Shown piece by piece: positions 2,319 through 35,633 of a DNA stretch of 61,121 bases. The stretch lies in the NCBI GenBank assembly GCA_012008225.1, contig GCA_012008225.1_4768.1; one strand, given 5' to 3'. The translations under genes and the position numbers were made by a program. The notes under the pieces are model-generated. The model made no database searches, was not told the origin of the DNA, and saw nothing but the letters and a program-made list of their open reading frames with translations. The stretch's first letter is position 1. Each line of letters starts with the position of its first letter. Origin of the DNA: a phage.

Positions 2319-4427
2319 TTAAACTTTCTCCCTCATTTGACTATCCGTTAATACTCGATTCCATATTCTAAGGTTACGAATATGACCATACAATTTAGTT
2401 GAATCTGAAGGTCTACCGCCTATCTCCAGCAAGGAATCCGGAGATAGTCCTTGCCACGTTGAACCGGAGGATGTTATATTCTTAAACCCATTCAGAAACG
2501 ATGTTACATCACCATTTTTTGTATGTATGAATCCCCATACGGATGGTATACCTACCCCGCTAAATGAAGCTCCGTTTGATCCTGTGGGAACTCCAGTTTC
2601 TTTATTTAAAAAGTAAACGCTTGGTACGCGTGTAGCTATAAGTAACTCAGATACAAAAGATTCTCCAGCTGTATTATATTTATTGTTATCCATTATCATT
2701 GGGTATGTATTACCTAATTGAAAGTTATCCCAGTTAATACTTACCTCAGCAAGGAGGGAAATATTCGTTCCTGAAAAATTATTTCTCGCAGGTATAGTAG
2801 CATAATCTAGAGCCCTTGTTGCAGGAGTGCTTCCAGTAATAATGAAGGAGGATGCACAAAAGCCCTTTTCAAATTGCGGAGTACAAAAGGATATTGTATC
2901 CCCAACTTGCACGTTATCCCCGTTAGAGCCGCGGGCATAGTTAATACTCCCAATCATAGCACCTGCAATATCGGAAAATTTACATATTATTTCAACCTTC
3001 AGCCATCCGCTATCTTCTTTGATAATTCTGTGTGTTACGGTTCCTCTAGCTTCTAGTGTAGATGTCACCTCCCCTGTGTCGCACGACACTATAGATCTTA
3101 CAACAAGAATAAGGGCATTATCTTCTCCTAACGCATAGAATTGAGGAATTATGGAAATATTAGTTGCTTTCACTCTAATAGATAAGGTTGCGTATTCGTT
3201 CTGTTCACAATATATGTTGTTATTGTATTCGCAATAAAATAGTGAGGGTGTATCACCGTGACCGTTTTCATTTGCGGTTGCGGTAGTATATGTAAATCCA
3301 TATTTATCGACGCCGTAAGTAATGTTGCTACGATACTTATCACTATTCAATGAAGCGGGGTCGTTACTGAAAGTAATGTGATTTGTCCTCTGTCCTTCAA
3401 TCAAGAGTCCTTGCTTTTCAAATCTAGGTTCATCGATATTGGCAATACAAAATTCACCATGTTTATTTATGTATGTTGCATTTGATGCGCGGGAGAAACT
3501 AACAACCTTATCAGAGGGCATTGTAATGACATCTTCACCGACTGTTATTTTCTTATAGCCTGGCGAGTAACCTGCAATCATTTCAAGCGAGTCATTAAAT
3601 GGAATCCACACGTCAGGGAAAGGTTGAAGATCCGGAGCCCTGTTAGCTGCAACTTCCGCACGGTCTGCTTCTGCCTTTGCACGATCCGCGTCGTTTTTAG
3701 CTGCGGTTGCGCTTGTACCTGCGTTGCTTGCTTGTTTTCCAGCTTCGGTGGCGCTATTGCTTGCTTGCGTAGCTGAAGCAGCAGCAGCGTCTTTTAGCGC
3801 GGTAGTTTCCGTTACTGCGCTGTCCTTAATACCCTGTGTGTCTGCTTTTAACTGCTCAACGTCAGATTTTAGACCTTGAATTGTGGTTACAGCTTGTGAT
3901 GCAGTGTTAGCAGAACCAGCAGCGCCAGCTTGTGCTTGTCTAGCAGCGTCTTCACTAGCTTTAGCATCATTTTTATAGACAAGTGCATCCGAAGCAGATT
4001 GAGCAGCTGAAGCCTTACTATTACGAGCGTCCGTAGCATCTGCGTTTGCTGCCGCAGCAGAGCGGCCAGCTTGCAAAGAGTATTCTTCAGAAGCAGCCAC
4101 AAGTTGTTGAACTTGTTTGATGACATCTGGTGTTAGTTCTTCTTCCACCCAATTAACAAGATAACCATTAAGTGACCCATCCGGACTATCTGCATATAGG
4201 ACAATTTCTCCAGCCTTATATGGTTCTTTTCCTTGAGGGCCCACTATAACCACATAGTGTCCTGGGTTCATTGTGATATTATATGCACCTTGAGAATCTG
4301 TACGGAATATCGCTTCGCTACTACCTAACACTATGAGTGTATTACTTCTTGCTATCAAGGATACGGTTGCATTAACAATAGGTTTATTCAAACCATCTGT
4401 TAGGATACCATATAGACGAATTGTCAT
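2319..4427 (-). CDS. Side tail fiber protein (lambda Stf-like N-terminus)
   Basis: 702 aa; ATG at 4427 with AGAGGT upstream; N-terminus MTIRLYGILTDGLNKPIVNATVSL resembles lambda Stf, followed by Ala/Ser/Gln-rich fibrous region. Confidence 0.7.
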   Translation of the reverse strand: MTIRLYGILTDGLNKPIVNATVSLIARSNTLIVLGSSEAIFRTDSQGAYNITMNPGHYVVIVGPQGKEPYKAGEIVLYADSPDGSLNGYLVNWVEEELTPDVIKQVQQLVAASEEYSLQAGRSAAAANADATDARNSKASAAQSASDALVYKNDAKASEDAARQAQAGAAGSANTASQAVTTIQGLKSDVEQLKADTQGIKDSAVTETTALKDAAAASATQASNSATEAGKQASNAGTSATAAKNDADRAKAEADRAEVAANRAPDLQPFPDVWIPFNDSLEMIAGYSPGYKKITVGEDVITMPSDKVVSFSRASNATYINKHGEFCIANIDEPRFEKQGLLIEGQRTNHITFSNDPASLNSDKYRSNITYGVDKYGFTYTTATANENGHGDTPSLFYCEYNNNIYCEQNEYATLSIRVKATNISIIPQFYALGEDNALILVVRSIVSCDTGEVTSTLEARGTVTHRIIKEDSGWLKVEIICKFSDIAGAMIGSINYARGSNGDNVQVGDTISFCTPQFEKGFCASSFIITGSTPATRALDYATIPARNNFSGTNISLLAEVSINWDNFQLGNTYPMIMDNNKYNTAGESFVSELLIATRVPSVYFLNKETGVPTGSNGASFSGVGIPSVWGFIHTKNGDVTSFLNGFKNITSSGSTWQGLSPDSLLEIGGRPSDSTKLYGHIRNLRIWNRVLTDSQMREKV

Positions 4428-26281: not shown

Positions 26282-26481
26282 ATTACACTATTTCGAATTT
26301 CATCATTCCAAACGTATTTCCCCTTCTCACCATTTTTATATGATGGAACAGAGAAAACGGATGAACATGGATATAGTTCTGATGTCGTTAAGCGTATACG
26401 CTTACCGTCAAAAGGTCCACCAACACAAAGGAACAGACCAGTCTTAGGCTTCTTCAAAATGGTTCCTCCCCACCTGTACAC
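26266..26481 (-). CDS. Hypothetical protein
   Basis: 71 aa ORF. Confidence 0.4.
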   Translation of the reverse strand: MYRWGGTILKKPKTGLFLCVGGPFDGKRIRLTTSELYPCSSVFSVPSYKNGEKGKYVWNDEIRNSVIWRTS

Positions 26482-28080: not shown

Positions 28081-28445
28081 TATTGCACTTCCACAATTAA
28101 TAGTTCACCATGACGTTCACGAGCGAGATTATATAATTCTTGCTTCTGCCCAATACTTAATTCGCAGTCAAGGATTGCAATATCACAATGAAAGCCACTC
28201 GTACGAATAACAGTGTCTTCATATGAGTCTTTGCGATGAGAAACCAAACGAAGGTGAAAGCGATCAAACTGTACTACGGAAGACTCACGTGACAGTTGTA
28301 CACAACGAACGAATTCAGGATCTTCGCGCAACACTTCTTCAAGCTGCCGGCGATACTCATTAGTCGGGCACAAAGCAAAAGCGACGCGATCGTCTTTTAG
28401 CTGTGGTCTCAGCATAGACCAGGCTTTAACTATATTCTCGTTCAT
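28080..28445 (-). CDS. Hypothetical protein
   Basis: 121 aa ORF. Confidence 0.45.
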   Translation of the reverse strand: MNENIVKAWSMLRPQLKDDRVAFALCPTNEYRRQLEEVLREDPEFVRCVQLSRESSVVQFDRFHLRLVSHRKDSYEDTVIRTSGFHCDIAILDCELSIGQKQELYNLARERHGELLIVEVQ

Positions 28446-28817: not shown

Positions 28818-29167
28818 AGCGGATCTCCTCTCGAGTATTTACATACAGAACTAACTTTATACGAACAATATAGGACAGGTGAGGTGAGGATATAAAGTGT
28901 CTAGTGACGAGATAATCTACAAACGATGAATCCTTGGCAGAGATCTAAGAGCCGCCCCGCGGCGTTACTATAACGTCCCGTGATCGTCAGTGAGGTGATT
29001 GTTACGTCATGTGACTGTTGCGCGCTCTACTGTAACGTTGTTTATTATTACACGCGTTATTATTTTTAATAGATTAGTATGCTATCTATTACATGACTAT
29101 ACTATAACGTCCAGTATAATTGCGTCTGTTACTATCCACCTGCCCACTATGTGCTGTCTATGTACGT

Positions 29168-29239
29168 GCTACCTGGTATTTCCGGCGCGTGCTGTTACCT
29201 GGTATTTTCGACACGCTCGCGCTACCTGGTATTTCCGGC
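29168..29239. repeat. Three direct repeats GCTACCTGGTATTTCCGGC (middle copy GTTACCTGGTATTTTCGAC) at 26-27 bp spacing
   Basis: Copies begin at 29168, 29194 and 29221 in the divergent intergenic region; first and third are identical 19-mers. Confidence 0.7.
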
Positions 29240-29317
29240 ACACCATCTACCGTATAGTCCCGGATGTTATTATTATGAAGTACAACTAAAAAAGTTCTAA
29301 AATAATGCAGATAATAG

Positions 29318-29346
29318 TTGCATCTGATACCCCGTTGTCATACTAT
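29318..29346 (+). promoter_or_regulatory. Sigma70-like early promoter
   Basis: TTGCAT (29318-29323), 17 nt spacer, TACTAT (29341-29346); ~75 nt upstream of first early gene. Confidence 0.45.
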
Positions 29347-29421
29347 AACTGCGTAGGGTTAAGGGGGTTTTTAAGCGGGACACGGGTTCCGCGCCCGCCT
29401 CACCCGAAGGGAGATTGCATT

Positions 29422-29727
29422 ATGTCCATTATCTACTTACCGCGTTCCATGTCCCAATCTCAGATTACTAAGCGCATTATCGGCAAGCGCCTGCATCAGC
29501 TGGGCCTTACTGCGGAAAAGGTTGACGGGGATTGGGGTTTCGATGAGTATCTGGTAATGCTCCCGGGCAACGAAAAGTATTCCAGCACCGCGTTATATAT
29601 TCGCATTAACGAGGACGGCACTGTTAGCTCTTATAGCGTAATGTACGGTCGCCCAGTATGCCAAGCTAACAGCCTTTGGTCTGTGTTCTGCTTCATTACA
29701 ATGATAGCTAAAGCTATCCAACAATAA
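29422..29727 (+). CDS. Early protein, paralog family A (copy 1)
   Basis: ATG at 29422 after GGGAGA (ORF-track frame from 29305); shares ITxRIIGKR and downstream pattern with gene 30871-31128. Confidence 0.6.
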   Translation: MSIIYLPRSMSQSQITKRIIGKRLHQLGLTAEKVDGDWGFDEYLVMLPGNEKYSSTALYIRINEDGTVSSYSVMYGRPVCQANSLWSVFCFITMIAKAIQQ

Positions 29728-29803
29728 TAGCGTGCTAATGGTTGCCCATTGTTGCAGTGGGCTCCCACTAGCAATCCGCTAGAACAACATGGAGATAATT
29801 ACA

Positions 29804-30283
29804 ATGGCTACTATCACTCGCGTAGCAAAAGATGCTCGCTTCTTCACTAATATGTCTAACGCTCGCCGTGCCTTGAAAAAGGTTCTGGATGTGGACACTG
29901 CGACAGCTAACAGCTTTATTCACCAGGAGCCTCTCGAAGACGGTGGCCGCTACTGGTTCAGCGAAAGCGCGGTTAATAAAGCAGCTAACGATCTGGTTGA
30001 AGCTGATAAAGCGACTGTCGTGGAAGTGACCACACAACCTGCTCCAACCGCTCCCGCTAAAAGCAAAACACGCAGCGAAACGCGCAACGGGGTCCGTCGC
30101 CCAATTAAAGGTAAATGTGCAGACGTTTGGAACGCTCTGGATAATATTTTGCCTGATGGTGTGCCAACTATTGGTAACGTCCGTGACCTTGCGAAAGCTA
30201 ATGGTTGGAATATTAATAATGCAACGATTGAATTCTACGCATGGCGTAAATTCCACGGGCTCAATAATAAAGGGGGCAACTAA
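29804..30283 (+). CDS. Hypothetical early protein
   Basis: ATG at 29804 after GGAGA; 159 aa. Confidence 0.55.
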   Translation: MATITRVAKDARFFTNMSNARRALKKVLDVDTATANSFIHQEPLEDGGRYWFSESAVNKAANDLVEADKATVVEVTTQPAPTAPAKSKTRSETRNGVRRPIKGKCADVWNALDNILPDGVPTIGNVRDLAKANGWNINNATIEFYAWRKFHGLNNKGGN

Positions 30284-30285
30284 TT

Positions 30286-30360
30286 ATGTTCTACTTATTA
30301 GCGTTCTTGGTATTCGGAGCTCCAATAGTTGCGGGTCTGTATTATACGGAGGGCAAATAA
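30286..30360 (+). CDS. Candidate 24-aa hydrophobic micropeptide (MFYLLAFLVFGAPIVAGLYYTEGK)
   Basis: ATG at 30286, 8 nt after AGGGGG; not in ORF track (too short); ends at TAA 30358-30360. Confidence 0.3.
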   Translation: MFYLLAFLVFGAPIVAGLYYTEGK

Positions 30361-30361
30361 T

Positions 30362-30547
30362 ATGGAAACTATAGTTCTTTATTGTTGGGTTGACCTGGAC
30401 GAACACGAATATTGTGTGAATATTAACAACGGACCAGTCCCGGACGTAACTTTCGCATCCTATGACGAAATGGATGCGTATGTAAAAGGTTTCCGCGAGT
30501 GCGCTCGCATTGCAAATATTAACGTGACTGTAATTTTACCGGAGTGA
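30362..30547 (+). CDS. Hypothetical early protein
   Basis: ATG at 30362 after GGAGGG; 61 aa acidic protein. Confidence 0.5.
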   Translation: METIVLYCWVDLDEHEYCVNINNGPVPDVTFASYDEMDAYVKGFRECARIANINVTVILPE

Positions 30548-30552
30548 CTATC

Positions 30553-30798
30553 ATGGCCCAAGCTATTATCACCAAATTCGTGAACCCGACTTCCGCTCGC
30601 GCTCCGCGCGTAAAAGCAACAGGCTGGAACGGCTCTGTAACTATCACATGGCGTGACGATGTGGGTGTTTACGGCAACCACCGCGCCGCAGCGGAGGAGC
30701 TGATCAATAAGTTTAACGCTAAAGCGGGAGTTGAGTTTGAGATTATCTCCCACGGGGAGCTCCCGGATCAAAGTGGTTACGCGTTTATCGTTGCATGA
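30553..30798 (+). CDS. Early protein, paralog family B (copy 1)
   Basis: ATG at 30553 after GGAG; similar in pattern to gene 31158-31406 (M.AI..K...PT.S...R.KA.G ... AAA.EL ... G.LPD). Confidence 0.6.
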   Translation: MAQAIITKFVNPTSARAPRVKATGWNGSVTITWRDDVGVYGNHRAAAEELINKFNAKAGVEFEIISHGELPDQSGYAFIVA

Positions 30799-30870
30799 GT
30801 GACATATACATTGCCCATAGTAACAGTGGGCAATAATATGCACTTCGCATAGTTAACTGAGGAAATTATT

Positions 30871-31128
30871 ATGTCTACAATATTAAACCAGTCAATGATC
30901 ACCCGTCGCATTATCGGCAAACGTATAGCTAATCTTGCGACTATCACCGCAGAGCTGGAAACTTTCGGTAATAACGCGCGCAAATATCGCGTCCGTTGCA
31001 ATGGTCTTAACGTTTATTTAACTGTGTTCAACGACGGTAGAGTTCACGCGGAACTGCATACTATGGGCCGCCTGGTTGCAACAGCGTCCACGCTGGCGGG
31101 CTTCATCAACCTGTTAAAAAACTGCTAA
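30871..31128 (+). CDS. Early protein, paralog family A (copy 2)
   Basis: ATG at 30871 after GAGGA; MSTILNQSMITRRIIGKRIANL aligns with copy 1. Confidence 0.6.
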   Translation: MSTILNQSMITRRIIGKRIANLATITAELETFGNNARKYRVRCNGLNVYLTVFNDGRVHAELHTMGRLVATASTLAGFINLLKNC

Positions 31129-31157
31129 CATTTAAAATTGTAACGGAGATAACTAAT

Positions 31158-31406
31158 ATGAACGCTATCCATGTCAAAGCACTGGCACCGACTCAATCCA
31201 AAGGTATGCGCTTTAAAGCAGTCGGCCTCGGTATGTGCGCAATAACTGCAAACGACTACAACCTGAACGGTGAAGCAAACGCCGCTGCCGCTGCGCAGGA
31301 GTTACTCGATAACTACAACATGCAGAACAGGTCACTTCAACTTAAGATACTTGGAGTTGGTACGCTTCCAGATAATACCTGGGCTGTACTATTAACTTGT
31401 AAATAA
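31158..31406 (+). CDS. Early protein, paralog family B (copy 2)
   Basis: ATG at 31158 after ACGGAG; aligns with gene 30553-30798. Confidence 0.6.
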   Translation: MNAIHVKALAPTQSKGMRFKAVGLGMCAITANDYNLNGEANAAAAAQELLDNYNMQNRSLQLKILGVGTLPDNTWAVLLTCK

Positions 31407-31429
31407 GTTCTAACTGCATTATACAGTCC

Positions 31430-31466
31430 GCGCCCTGTTGAAGTCCAACGGGGCGCTTTCGTTTTG
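31430..31466 (+). terminator. Rho-independent terminator ending the early operon
   Basis: 11 bp stem GCGCCCTGTTG/CAACGGGGCGC (one G-U pair), loop AAGTC, then TTTCGTTTTG. Confidence 0.7.
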
Positions 31467-31469
31467 TAC

Positions 31470-32430
31470 CCGCACCACCTCCCGCGTTACCCTGCTGACC
31501 ACATGTTACTCACCCATAACTGCACCATTCGCGCTCTAAGAGCGTAACTCCTTCCTCCGTACATTACCATAGACTCCAAACTAGTCGCTTTATACGCCTT
31601 TACAGCGATCCGCTCCCTGCTTCCCTGTACGCGATTTTGCGGCATTTTCGCCCCTCACTGCCACCATTGCACTGATCCAACCGCTTTATCGCGCTACGCG
31701 CCCCATTTTCGCGGCTATTTTCGCTTTATGGGCTACCCGCTACACCGATCCCAGCCACCAAACCTCACCGAAATGCTCGCTTTCACCGAAAAATCCGACA
31801 TTTATACCATAAAATAGAATCGTTTTCGGGCTACAAAAATTCAGACTCAAAAATCCGATTCGCTCCGAAAGTCACTTCAACAAAAATCGCTTGCAATCTA
31901 GTTTTCTTTTGTGTTAGACCGCGTGCCCGCATTATGCGCGTGCGCGAGCTTGTGAGCGCCTCGTTGTTGCGCAACAAATATTTCTTATATTGCTCGTATA
32001 TTGTCGCTTAATATACGAAATGAAAGGAGGTAAGTGCATGAAAAATAAGGTAAAAATGTGTATGTGTGTGTATTTATATAAATTTTATAAAGATTTTTTA
32101 TTTTTGAGTTGTCTACTGACGACCCCACGAGACCCCTTTATAAATAATATAAATCACTATAAACCTCCCAATCCCCAAAATTTTCCCTTATTTTTCATAC
32201 ACTTCGCTTCGCCGTTTCGTATATTGCTGGATCTTTATAAATTGTGCATTTTTTCACCGATCTTTATAAATTTGCAAATTCTCACCTTCAGACTGTTGTA
32301 ATTTTTGCAAAAGCAAAAACTTTGCATATACAAAACACCGCAAAACATCACAGTTGCAAATAGCAAAAACTTTGCATAAATTAAAACTTGGCAACTGAAT
32401 TTCAAAATCAGTCGATTTATTATTATCAAG
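31470..32430. promoter_or_regulatory. ~1 kb noncoding repeat-rich region (candidate replication origin / regulatory hub)
   Basis: GC-rich part with reiterated short motifs (CGCTTTAT x3, ATTTTCGC x3, CACCGAAA x2, AAAATCCGA x2); perfect 14 bp palindrome TTGTTGCGCAACAA (31964-31977); AT-rich part with direct repeats GATCTTTATAAATT (32230, 32259) and AGCAAAAACTTTGCATA (32312, 32362). Confidence 0.4.
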
Positions 32431-32439
32431 GGTGAGGTT

Positions 32440-33060
32440 ATGCGCAATCGTAAAATTGAAATAACACACGCACACGTACAAGAAATGTTCGGTTACGACG
32501 AAGTGATGTACGCCAAAGCGGTAGCCATATTAGAACAGCACAAAGACAGCCTAAGTAATGTGGTCAAAACGTGGAAGGAGGCTGGCCTCGTGTTGCGGCC
32601 GAATGCGGTCAAGACGCTGGACGACGGGCGTAAATATATGTGCTGGGCAGCTCCGATGTTTGGGATGATGTTCACTATCGACATCTACTTCGCATACTGG
32701 TTGTTACACGCGGATTTTGTGATTCCGCTCGACAAGTACATGCACAGCAAAGGGTTCAATAGTTGCTTTGACGTGTGTCCTGACACGGAAGGCAACGGTG
32801 TTATGATCCTGGGCTTTAAGTGGGTGGGCGATAAGTGTGAAATAAGGCCGCTGCGATATCCGCGTGGTAAAGCGCGTCGTGCATATATCGAAGACGGTAT
32901 TGTTCATTGGTGCAATGTAACGAAGCGTCGAATGAGCACTGACCACATTGCGCATATCAAAGAGGGCCTCGTTAGACTTCAGACGAATAATAATGGTAAT
33001 GTGCAGTTACAGAAAGAATTGCAAGAACTCATTGAATACATTGATCAGTTCGGAGCGTGA
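32440..33060 (+). CDS. Hypothetical protein
   Basis: 206 aa; ATG at 32440 after GGTGAGG. Confidence 0.6.
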   Translation: MRNRKIEITHAHVQEMFGYDEVMYAKAVAILEQHKDSLSNVVKTWKEAGLVLRPNAVKTLDDGRKYMCWAAPMFGMMFTIDIYFAYWLLHADFVIPLDKYMHSKGFNSCFDVCPDTEGNGVMILGFKWVGDKCEIRPLRYPRGKARRAYIEDGIVHWCNVTKRRMSTDHIAHIKEGLVRLQTNNNGNVQLQKELQELIEYIDQFGA

Positions 33061-35613: not shown

Positions 35614-35633
35614 GCAGGGGGTTAACCCCCTGC
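35614..35633. promoter_or_regulatory. Perfect 20 bp GC-rich palindrome GCAGGGGGTTAACCCCCTGC
   Basis: Lies 4 nt after the stop at 35610 and upstream of TATATACTAT; no U-tract follows, so either an operator or an RNA hairpin. Confidence 0.4.

Follow-up and report, generated by a model that had tools for sequence, protein, structure and literature searches.

The closest architectural parallel to the locus described here comes from phage T5, in which a 1.2-kb untranslated segment, Repeat Region 3, is dense in repeats, inverted repeats and palindromes, is highly conserved, and sits mostly within the left terminal repeat whilst extending 270 bp into unique DNA (Davison, bioRxiv 10.1101/866236). According to the same work, which cites Heusterspreute et al. 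1987, the injection stop signal is believed to reside in Repeat Region 3. Our subject is a gene-free kilobase (positions 31470-32430, hereafter ‘the region’) in a 61,121-bp stretch of phage DNA (GenBank assembly GCA_012008225.1, contig GCA_012008225.1_4768.1; the whole stretch is ‘the window’), which a first-pass annotation had put forward as a candidate replication origin. We consider it probable, although some way short of certain, that the region is a composite junction between a direct terminal repeat of ~3.2 kb (28949-32141) and unique DNA; the best-supported description is that of a new, well-delimited example of a known phage feature, and not of a demonstrated replication origin.

The region and its T5 counterpart are each an untranslated stretch of ~1 kb, with direct and inverted repeats and palindromes, placed where a long direct terminal repeat bearing small early genes reaches its inner end; both overrun the repeat boundary by a few hundred bp, and both are highly conserved among relatives. 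The two nevertheless share no sequence similarity, the repeat here is 3.2 kb as against 10 kb in T5, and neither paired DnaA boxes nor recognised A1/A2-like genes are present, with two-step transfer not known for the genus, Nonagvirus, to which the window belongs. Since the paired DnaA boxes are absent and no A1/A2-like protein is recognisable, we take the resemblance to T5 as one of layout, membership not being established.

A second precedent for how the site may work is the concatemer junction of T7 and T3, where the terminal repeat is reportedly flanked by arrays of short repeats and by pac sites, and where a palindrome close by has been linked to duplication of the repeat through a hairpin. 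In T7 the repeat is 160 bp long and gene-free, and its processing is coupled to the phage RNA polymerase. Exact terminal repeats, sequence-specific cuts at both boundaries, adjoining arrays of short words and a palindrome near one boundary are features that the present locus would share with T7; here, however, the cut lies inside the palindrome loop, and the repeat is long and gene-bearing. The pac site of SPP1 (pacL-pacC-pacR) and the cos site of lambda (cosQ-cosN-cosB) belong to headful-permuted or cohesive-end genomes; there too the cleavage point is flanked within ~200 bp by repeated or symmetric sites for the small terminase subunit, for which we describe candidates below, but those genomes have no long exact terminal repeats and the region has no IHF consensus sites.

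Probable ends of the terminal repeat

The window is the genome, complete or nearly so, of a Nonagvirus (9g-like siphoviruses, Queuovirinae), with late genes on the minus strand left of ~28.8 kb and plus-strand genes from 29.3 kb onward. Positions 31400-32440 have a full-length match, at 86-94% identity, in 16 of the 18 Nonagvirus GenBank records; no match to the region was found in other phages, sensitive blastn included, there was no similarity to it in 5,426 E. coli genomes (chromosomes, plasmids and prophages), and distant-homologue searches with the region or with the next gene returned nothing beyond Nonagvirus. Within the window there is no long internal repeat, no tRNA or tmRNA was found, and Rfam gave no match at gathering score or at E ≤ 1. 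Comparisons between relatives were made on an alignment of 17 genomes, comprising 11 GenBank isolates, five IMG/VR contigs (JenP1 and JenP2 among them) and the window itself; percentages of invariant columns refer to one set of 11 genomes.

The boundary came to light in two deposited records, HdK1 (64,059 bp) and HdSG1 (63,595 bp), in each of which the region is matched twice. Both carry direct terminal repeats at the two ends of the record, of 3367 bp and 3363 bp, respectively, and both were linearised at sites where most reads abruptly ended (PMC6563267). In each, the outer repeat end begins at GAGCCGCCCCGCGG, which is found at record position 28,243 in 9g and, as an exact 14-mer, at 28949 in the window (boundary word GAGCCGCCCC); in their study of phage 9g, Kulikov et al. 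observed 91 reads starting at 28243, from which a physical end and a terminal repeat of unknown size were inferred (PMC4276943). HdK1, HdSG1 and the read-start hot spot of 9g thus all give the same left boundary, which is located inside 51 consecutive invariant columns (16 genomes). As for the inner repeat end, this reads …GACGACCCCACGAGACCCCTTTAT in HdK1 and sits three bases further on in HdSG1 (…TTTATAAA), equating to window positions 32141 and 32144; the HdK1 record starts at the complement of …CCCCTTTAT, and that of HdSG1 at …CCCCTTTATAAA. In the context of the window, the right boundary is …GACCCCTTTAT/AAAT, at 32141-32144, where the stroke marks the cut.

By homology, then, it is within the region that virion DNA passes from terminally repeated to unique sequence, with some 670 bp (31470-32141) inside the repeat and some 290 bp (32142-32430) outside it, and we infer that this phage has the same ends as its relatives. 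The features that define the boundary are as follows.

28949-32141, plus strand: inferred direct terminal repeat of 3193 bp, by homology to HdK1, HdSG1 and 9g
32134-32145, plus strand: CCCTTTAT/AAAT, right repeat end and virion DNA end by homology, with the cut after 32141 (as in HdK1) or 32144 (as in HdSG1)
32010-32225, no strand: imperfect palindrome of about 215 bp that brackets the end of the terminal repeat, with nested arms 32010-32060 and 32176-32225
32111-32123, plus strand: GTCTACTGACGAC, a 13-mer and candidate terminase recognition word, which also precedes the other repeat boundary

Literature searches found neither a published repeat length nor a PhageTerm result for any Nonagvirus. 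No metagenome contig was found to end at the boundary, in a search that used a 15-mer query, too short for the purpose, and in which 3 of the 120 contigs fetched were true relatives. A 77.6-kb contig from a human gut metagenome (UEYF01000106.1) has this junction sequence as well; since its length exceeds that of every Nonagvirus genome with the repeat added, it may be a wrap-around assembly or a larger relative. In 9g, the early half of the genome is reported to have ~1.5-fold higher read coverage, which changes sharply at the mapped end (PMC4276943, section 3.5); a 3.2-kb repeat does not account for this difference. Just outside the left repeat boundary, HdK1 has a homing/HNH endonuclease gene (3536-4015).

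Palindrome and candidate cut site

The right repeat end lies in the loop of the 215-bp palindrome, in the arms of which 32010-32020 pairs with 32215-32225 (11 nt, 100%) and 32032-32060 with 32176-32204 (29 nt, 86%). The loop holds the invariant GAGTTGTCTACTGACGACCCC-ACGAGACCCCTTTAT/AAAT, and TTTATAAA is itself an 8-bp palindrome with the cut inside it. The window has just four copies of CTTTATAAA, every one of them between 32084 and 32270; the four surround the boundary, which falls within one of them and is preceded by a tandem ACGACCCC / ACGAGACCCC as well as by GTCTACTGACGAC.

At two mismatches or fewer, the sole other match to this 13-mer in the window is GTCTAGTGACGAG at 28899-28911, in the same orientation and 37-38 nt before the left boundary, such that both boundaries are preceded by the consensus GTCTA(C/G)TGACGA(C/G). 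No local alignment between the two boundary regions scores higher (4 of 300 shuffles did equally well or better), and beyond the 13-mer they have no similarity to each other. At the right boundary the 13-mer is invariant in 17 genomes, and at the left it is present in 14 of 16, with variants in HdK1 and JenP2. We infer from these arrangements that terminase may recognise either the shared 13-mer or the arms of the palindrome.

The palindrome also bears on an open reading frame (ORF) to which the first-pass annotation had drawn attention on account of its perfect Shine-Dalgarno (SD) sequence and its odd Phe/Leu/Cys-rich product.

32025: AGGAGGT, the SD sequence
32038: ATG
32038-32301, plus strand: SD-led ORF of 87 aa, rejected as a gene

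Both signals are indeed present, in the left arm, and both are mirrored in the right arm on the other strand. Indeed, the 19-mer AAGTGYATGAAAAATAAGG occurs in the window only at 32032 (plus strand) and 32186 (minus strand), once in each arm and on opposite strands, which makes the ‘perfect SD plus ATG’ one half of a symmetrical structure. Whilst the SD and ATG, and the fact that some annotators have called an ORF here, might be taken to favour a genuine coding gene, we regard this as scarcely credible: single-nucleotide indels in homopolymer runs break the frame, so that its length over the 17 genomes is 87, 67, 36, 35 or 14 aa; the product matches neither a PHROG nor a Pfam family; there is no codon periodicity; and the ORF spans the terminal-repeat boundary. 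A conserved protein-coding gene at 32038 was thus ruled out by frame comparison, family searches and periodicity. For the region as a whole, the same annotation's statement that it holds no convincing gene is upheld, in that we found no codon periodicity, no conserved frame and no protein family: variable columns show no three-base periodicity in any non-coding block (p 0.17-0.98, as against p = 3e-7 for the adjacent gene), and the annotators of 11 relatives disagree with one another, having called different ORFs in the region or none at all.

It could also be argued that the symmetry serves an RNA, the plus-strand transcript forming a 215-nt hairpin that acts as an RNase III site or hides the SD-ATG of a tiny leader peptide. 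Relative to shuffles, the strongest fold is that of the plus-strand RNA (z = -6.8, compared with -4.95 for minus-strand RNA and -5.3 for DNA), 99% of the pairs in the palindrome are kept in the 17 genomes, and the SD and ATG are invariant, with the first six codons (MKNKVK) retained in most relatives. Moreover, one-sided changes, read on the plus strand, yield G·T (G·U as RNA) at 12 sites and A·C at 3, an asymmetry that gives a weak hint of selection on the plus-strand fold. The excess of G·U depends, however, on a few linked blocks of alleles; there is a single compensatory change, 115 of 500 shuffles gave a covariation score as high or higher, and the palindrome is preserved mainly through invariance. 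Nor is there any Rfam match, nor any promoter found upstream, where a strong terminator stands at 31430; besides, the hairpin can just as well be read as a palindrome in the DNA whose loop holds the genome end, and of which the right-hand repeat copy possesses one arm only. Taken together, these observations leave a functional RNA improbable, and we continue to favour a DNA element at the repeat end.

Conserved DNA on either side of the boundary

On the evidence of the alignment, the non-coding DNA of the region is under purifying selection. Invariant columns make up 78% of 31640-31919, 87% of 32005-32144 and 82% of 32186-32320, and the corresponding values for codon positions 1, 2 and 3 of the next gene are 75%, 84% and 56%; that is to say, the non-coding DNA is conserved about as well as codon positions 1 and 2. 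Two segments vary freely, namely a cassette at 31921-32004 and the stretch 32321-32392. The constituent parts, together with the repeated words, are listed here.

31430-31466, plus strand: intrinsic terminator, an 11-pair stem (8 G-C) followed by a T run, which ends the repeat-borne operon of small early genes (29305-31406)
31470-31636, no strand: left part of the C-rich non-coding DNA, 73% of columns invariant, with no codon periodicity
31637-31920, no strand: C-rich core with clustered short words, present in 17 of 17 genomes
31921-32004 (alignment columns 563-650), no strand: cassette with three discrete alleles of similar length, 30% of columns invariant
32226-32430, plus strand: AT-rich (30% GC) promoter/operator-like array outside the repeat, leading into the first unique early gene at 32440
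31586, 31682 and 31722: CGCTTTAT
31644, 31705 and 31717: ATTTTCGC
31766 and 31784: CACCGAAA
31790 and 31850: AAAATCCGA
31964-31977: TTGTTGCGCAACAA, perfect 14-bp palindrome
32230 and 32259: GATCTTTATAAATT
32312 and 32362: AGCAAAAACTTTGCATA

All of the motifs reported in the first-pass annotation were recovered where it had placed them, and the listed motifs are enriched over chance. For instance, 5 of the 20 copies of TTGCAAA in the window (p about 1.5e-8) and 5 of the 31 copies of TTTTCG (p about 2e-6) fall in the region, 4 of the 8 copies of AAAATCSV lie inside 260 bp, and the region holds 3 of the window's 18 perfect palindromes of at least 12 bp. The two longest perfect palindromes in the window are GCAGGGGGTTAACCCCCTGC (20 bp, 35614-35633) and TAAGCGTATACGCTTA (16 bp, 26389-26404).

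The C-rich DNA, with a GC skew of -0.39 over 31470-31920, can be divided according to how well it tolerates loss. In JenP1 a homing/HNH endonuclease gene (JenP1 2896-3369) directly follows the last repeat-borne gene, replacing window positions 31407-31636 with the terminator included, and this segment is for that reason dispensable. The core has three copies of ATTTTCGC, four of AAAATC(C/G) and two of CACCGAAA, and in 31797-31836 there are 38 invariant positions within 40 nt. Structured RNA was considered for the C-rich half and ruled out, since neither strand gave a signal of folding (z -0.69 and +1.09) and Rfam returned no match. Conservation of the C-rich DNA is best explained by the binding of protein to DNA, and the core is probably an array of protein-binding sites.

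The cassette separates two ultra-conserved blocks and was seen as alleles a, b and c across 17 + 3 genomes. The perfect palindrome at 31964-31977 is present in alleles a and b and missing from c, which has instead an additional TGTCTACTGACGAG, an extra copy of the 13-mer type found at 32111-32123. Distribution of the alleles is independent of overall similarity (JenK1 and BRET, for example, share allele b with 9g), which suggests that they have been exchanged by recombination.

Reiterated words beside an AT-rich stretch are what led to the proposal of an iteron-type replication origin, with the C-rich words as initiator sites and the 30%-GC half as the unwinding element. In its favour, clustered reiterated words do adjoin a stretch of 30% GC (about 30% over 32005-32430, as against 43% for the window), much as they do in lambda ori, P1 oriR and plasmid oriV; the DNA is strongly conserved and non-coding, the cumulative GC skew reaches its minimum near 32.3 kb, and an origin would be compatible with the junction reading. 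The words are, however, only 8-14 nt long (8-10 nt for those that would serve as initiator sites), present in two to four copies each and irregularly spaced, and classical iterons of 17-22 bp are absent from the region, so that they are no iterons as understood for lambda or plasmids; a set that looks more like iterons, of three 22-nt repeats, lies elsewhere, at 29165-29239. No consensus DnaA box occurs in the region, where all boxes have one mismatch and lie in the AT-rich part, and across the genome such boxes (at one mismatch or fewer) are not enriched, with 150 found and 153 expected. Equally, no IHF consensus site was found in the region and no initiator gene was identified among the neighbouring proteins, which are without known function in PHROG and Pfam. 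The skew minimum, which the first-pass annotation had proposed as a check, is real, but it is a product of the C-rich non-coding stretch and of the switch in gene orientation that falls there. The claim of an origin with an unwinding element hence finds no specific support, and we judge it unlikely; a terminal-repeat boundary is a better explanation than an origin, both for the most conserved block and for the large palindrome.

The alternative that the annotation had offered, a dense operator region, fares better for the right-hand 200 bp. The AT-rich array contains the two GATCTTTATAAATT copies and units of the form TTGCAA(A)-N16/17-TA, the spacers of which are TGCAAA…TTTGCA inverted repeats; by eye, two of these match at 8 of 12 positions (TTGCAA-17-TAAATT at 32354-32382 and TTGCAA-16-TATACA at 32305-32332). 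Such promoter-like spacing, along with the inverted repeats, makes an operator region plausible, although no plus-strand promoter reaches the scan threshold. In appearance these are regulated promoters that would serve the gene at 32440; this reading stays conjectural because none of them attains that threshold. In HdK1, HdSG1 and ESCO3, divergence of the AT-rich units goes along with a divergent N-terminus in the downstream protein. A promoter-like TTGGGA-16-TATTAT on the minus strand, at 32144-32171, points leftward over the repeat boundary, and would be intact only in the left repeat copy or in concatemers.

Working model and implications for Nonagvirus

Within the repeat itself there are six small genes of unknown function with their own sigma-70-like promoter (29093-29120) and terminator, the latter conserved in 16 of 17 relatives and annotated as such in HdK1, HdSG1 and SP8; the encoded proteins belong only to PHROGs of unknown function. 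Two pairs of paralogues are found in this operon, phrog_13865 (29305 and 30871) and phrog_3199 (30544 and 31158), and gene content varies between relatives. Just downstream of the promoter and before the first repeat gene, a 22-nt unit, CGYGCTACCTGGTATTTCCGGC, is directly repeated three times at a spacing of 26-27 bp (29165-29239); the copies are more iteron- or operator-like than anything in 31470-32430. The sequence TACTATAACGTCC(C/A)GT occurs twice, at 28966-28981 (17 nt inside the left boundary) and at 29100-29115, where it overlaps the -10 element of the early promoter.

This cargo invites a bolder comparison with T5, in which the small repeat genes would form a pre-early module, expressed ahead of entry of the remaining genome, with the untranslated, repeat-rich DNA at the repeat's inner end as a stop/resume signal for DNA entry. 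Consistent with this, the operon has its own promoter and terminator, the untranslated region is split by the repeat end into ~670 bp inside and ~290 bp outside, and its conservation rivals that of the next gene's first two codon positions. Set against it are the lack of paired DnaA boxes, the conserved hallmark of the T5 element, and of any recognised A1 or A2 homologue among the repeat proteins; literature searches found no evidence of two-step transfer in any Nonagvirus, and the left 170 bp are dispensable in JenP1. We therefore hold an entry pause to be a rather remote prospect, and likewise give little credence to its fuller form, by analogy with T5, whereby the 3.2-kb repeat would be a ‘first-step’ module in a ~60-kb siphovirus, with the array and palindrome pausing or licensing entry through a signal unrelated to the DnaA boxes of T5.

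Returning to the composite junction, we propose a model for how its parts might work together, in which the ends seen in relatives, the conservation, the palindrome and the lack of a gene are established. The terminator would end the operon of small genes carried in the repeat; the conserved array of C-rich short words would bind a protein, and the three-allele cassette might act as a spacer. Terminase would then cut replicated DNA in the loop of the 215-bp palindrome, at GAGTTGTCTACTGACGACCCC-ACGAGACCCCTTTAT/AAAT, to generate the right end of the virion chromosome, whilst outside the repeat, AT-rich promoters of host type, together with inverted-repeat operators, would start the first unique early operon.

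Saying this, a number of observations weigh against such a junction, or at least against parts of it. For this phage the ends are those of its relatives, carried over by homology; one read-start hot spot only, equivalent to 28949, is reported for 9g, where the repeat could not be sized (PMC4276943) and the right end thus lacks independent confirmation; and the right ends of HdK1 and HdSG1 are 3 nt apart. In addition, the distance between 13-mer and cut is 18 nt at one boundary but 37 nt at the other, and the word is of modest significance (4/300 shuffles). To the right of the boundary, no plus-strand sigma-70 promoter was found in 32142-32430 at the scan threshold of 9 of 12. Finally, nothing points to a binder of the C-rich array, the largest part of the region, which the junction does not explain.

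Beyond the genus, the Seuratvirus CAjan has at the same map position a 630-bp gap (1164-1793), with the small early genes to one side of it and the main early operon to the other. The gap abounds in TAGGGT/ACCCTA words and in AT-rich runs, and is unrelated in sequence to the region; given its equivalent position, the layout of the junction seems to be conserved across the subfamily.

For the genus Nonagvirus, the analysis places the physical ends to within a few nucleotides (window 28949 and 32141-32144), and implies that most deposited genomes omit a repeat of ~3.2-3.4 kb; it also allows annotation to be corrected where spurious ORFs have been called in the region. Three candidate packaging signals emerge, namely the 13-mer common to both boundaries, the TTTATAAA palindrome at the cut and the 215-bp palindrome, and the ends should be useful for the engineering of Nonagvirus phages, which carry deazaguanine-modified DNA, as well as for studying the cutting and duplication of exact terminal repeats of this length. 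The T5 parallel also makes stepwise entry of DNA a question worth asking in a much smaller phage.

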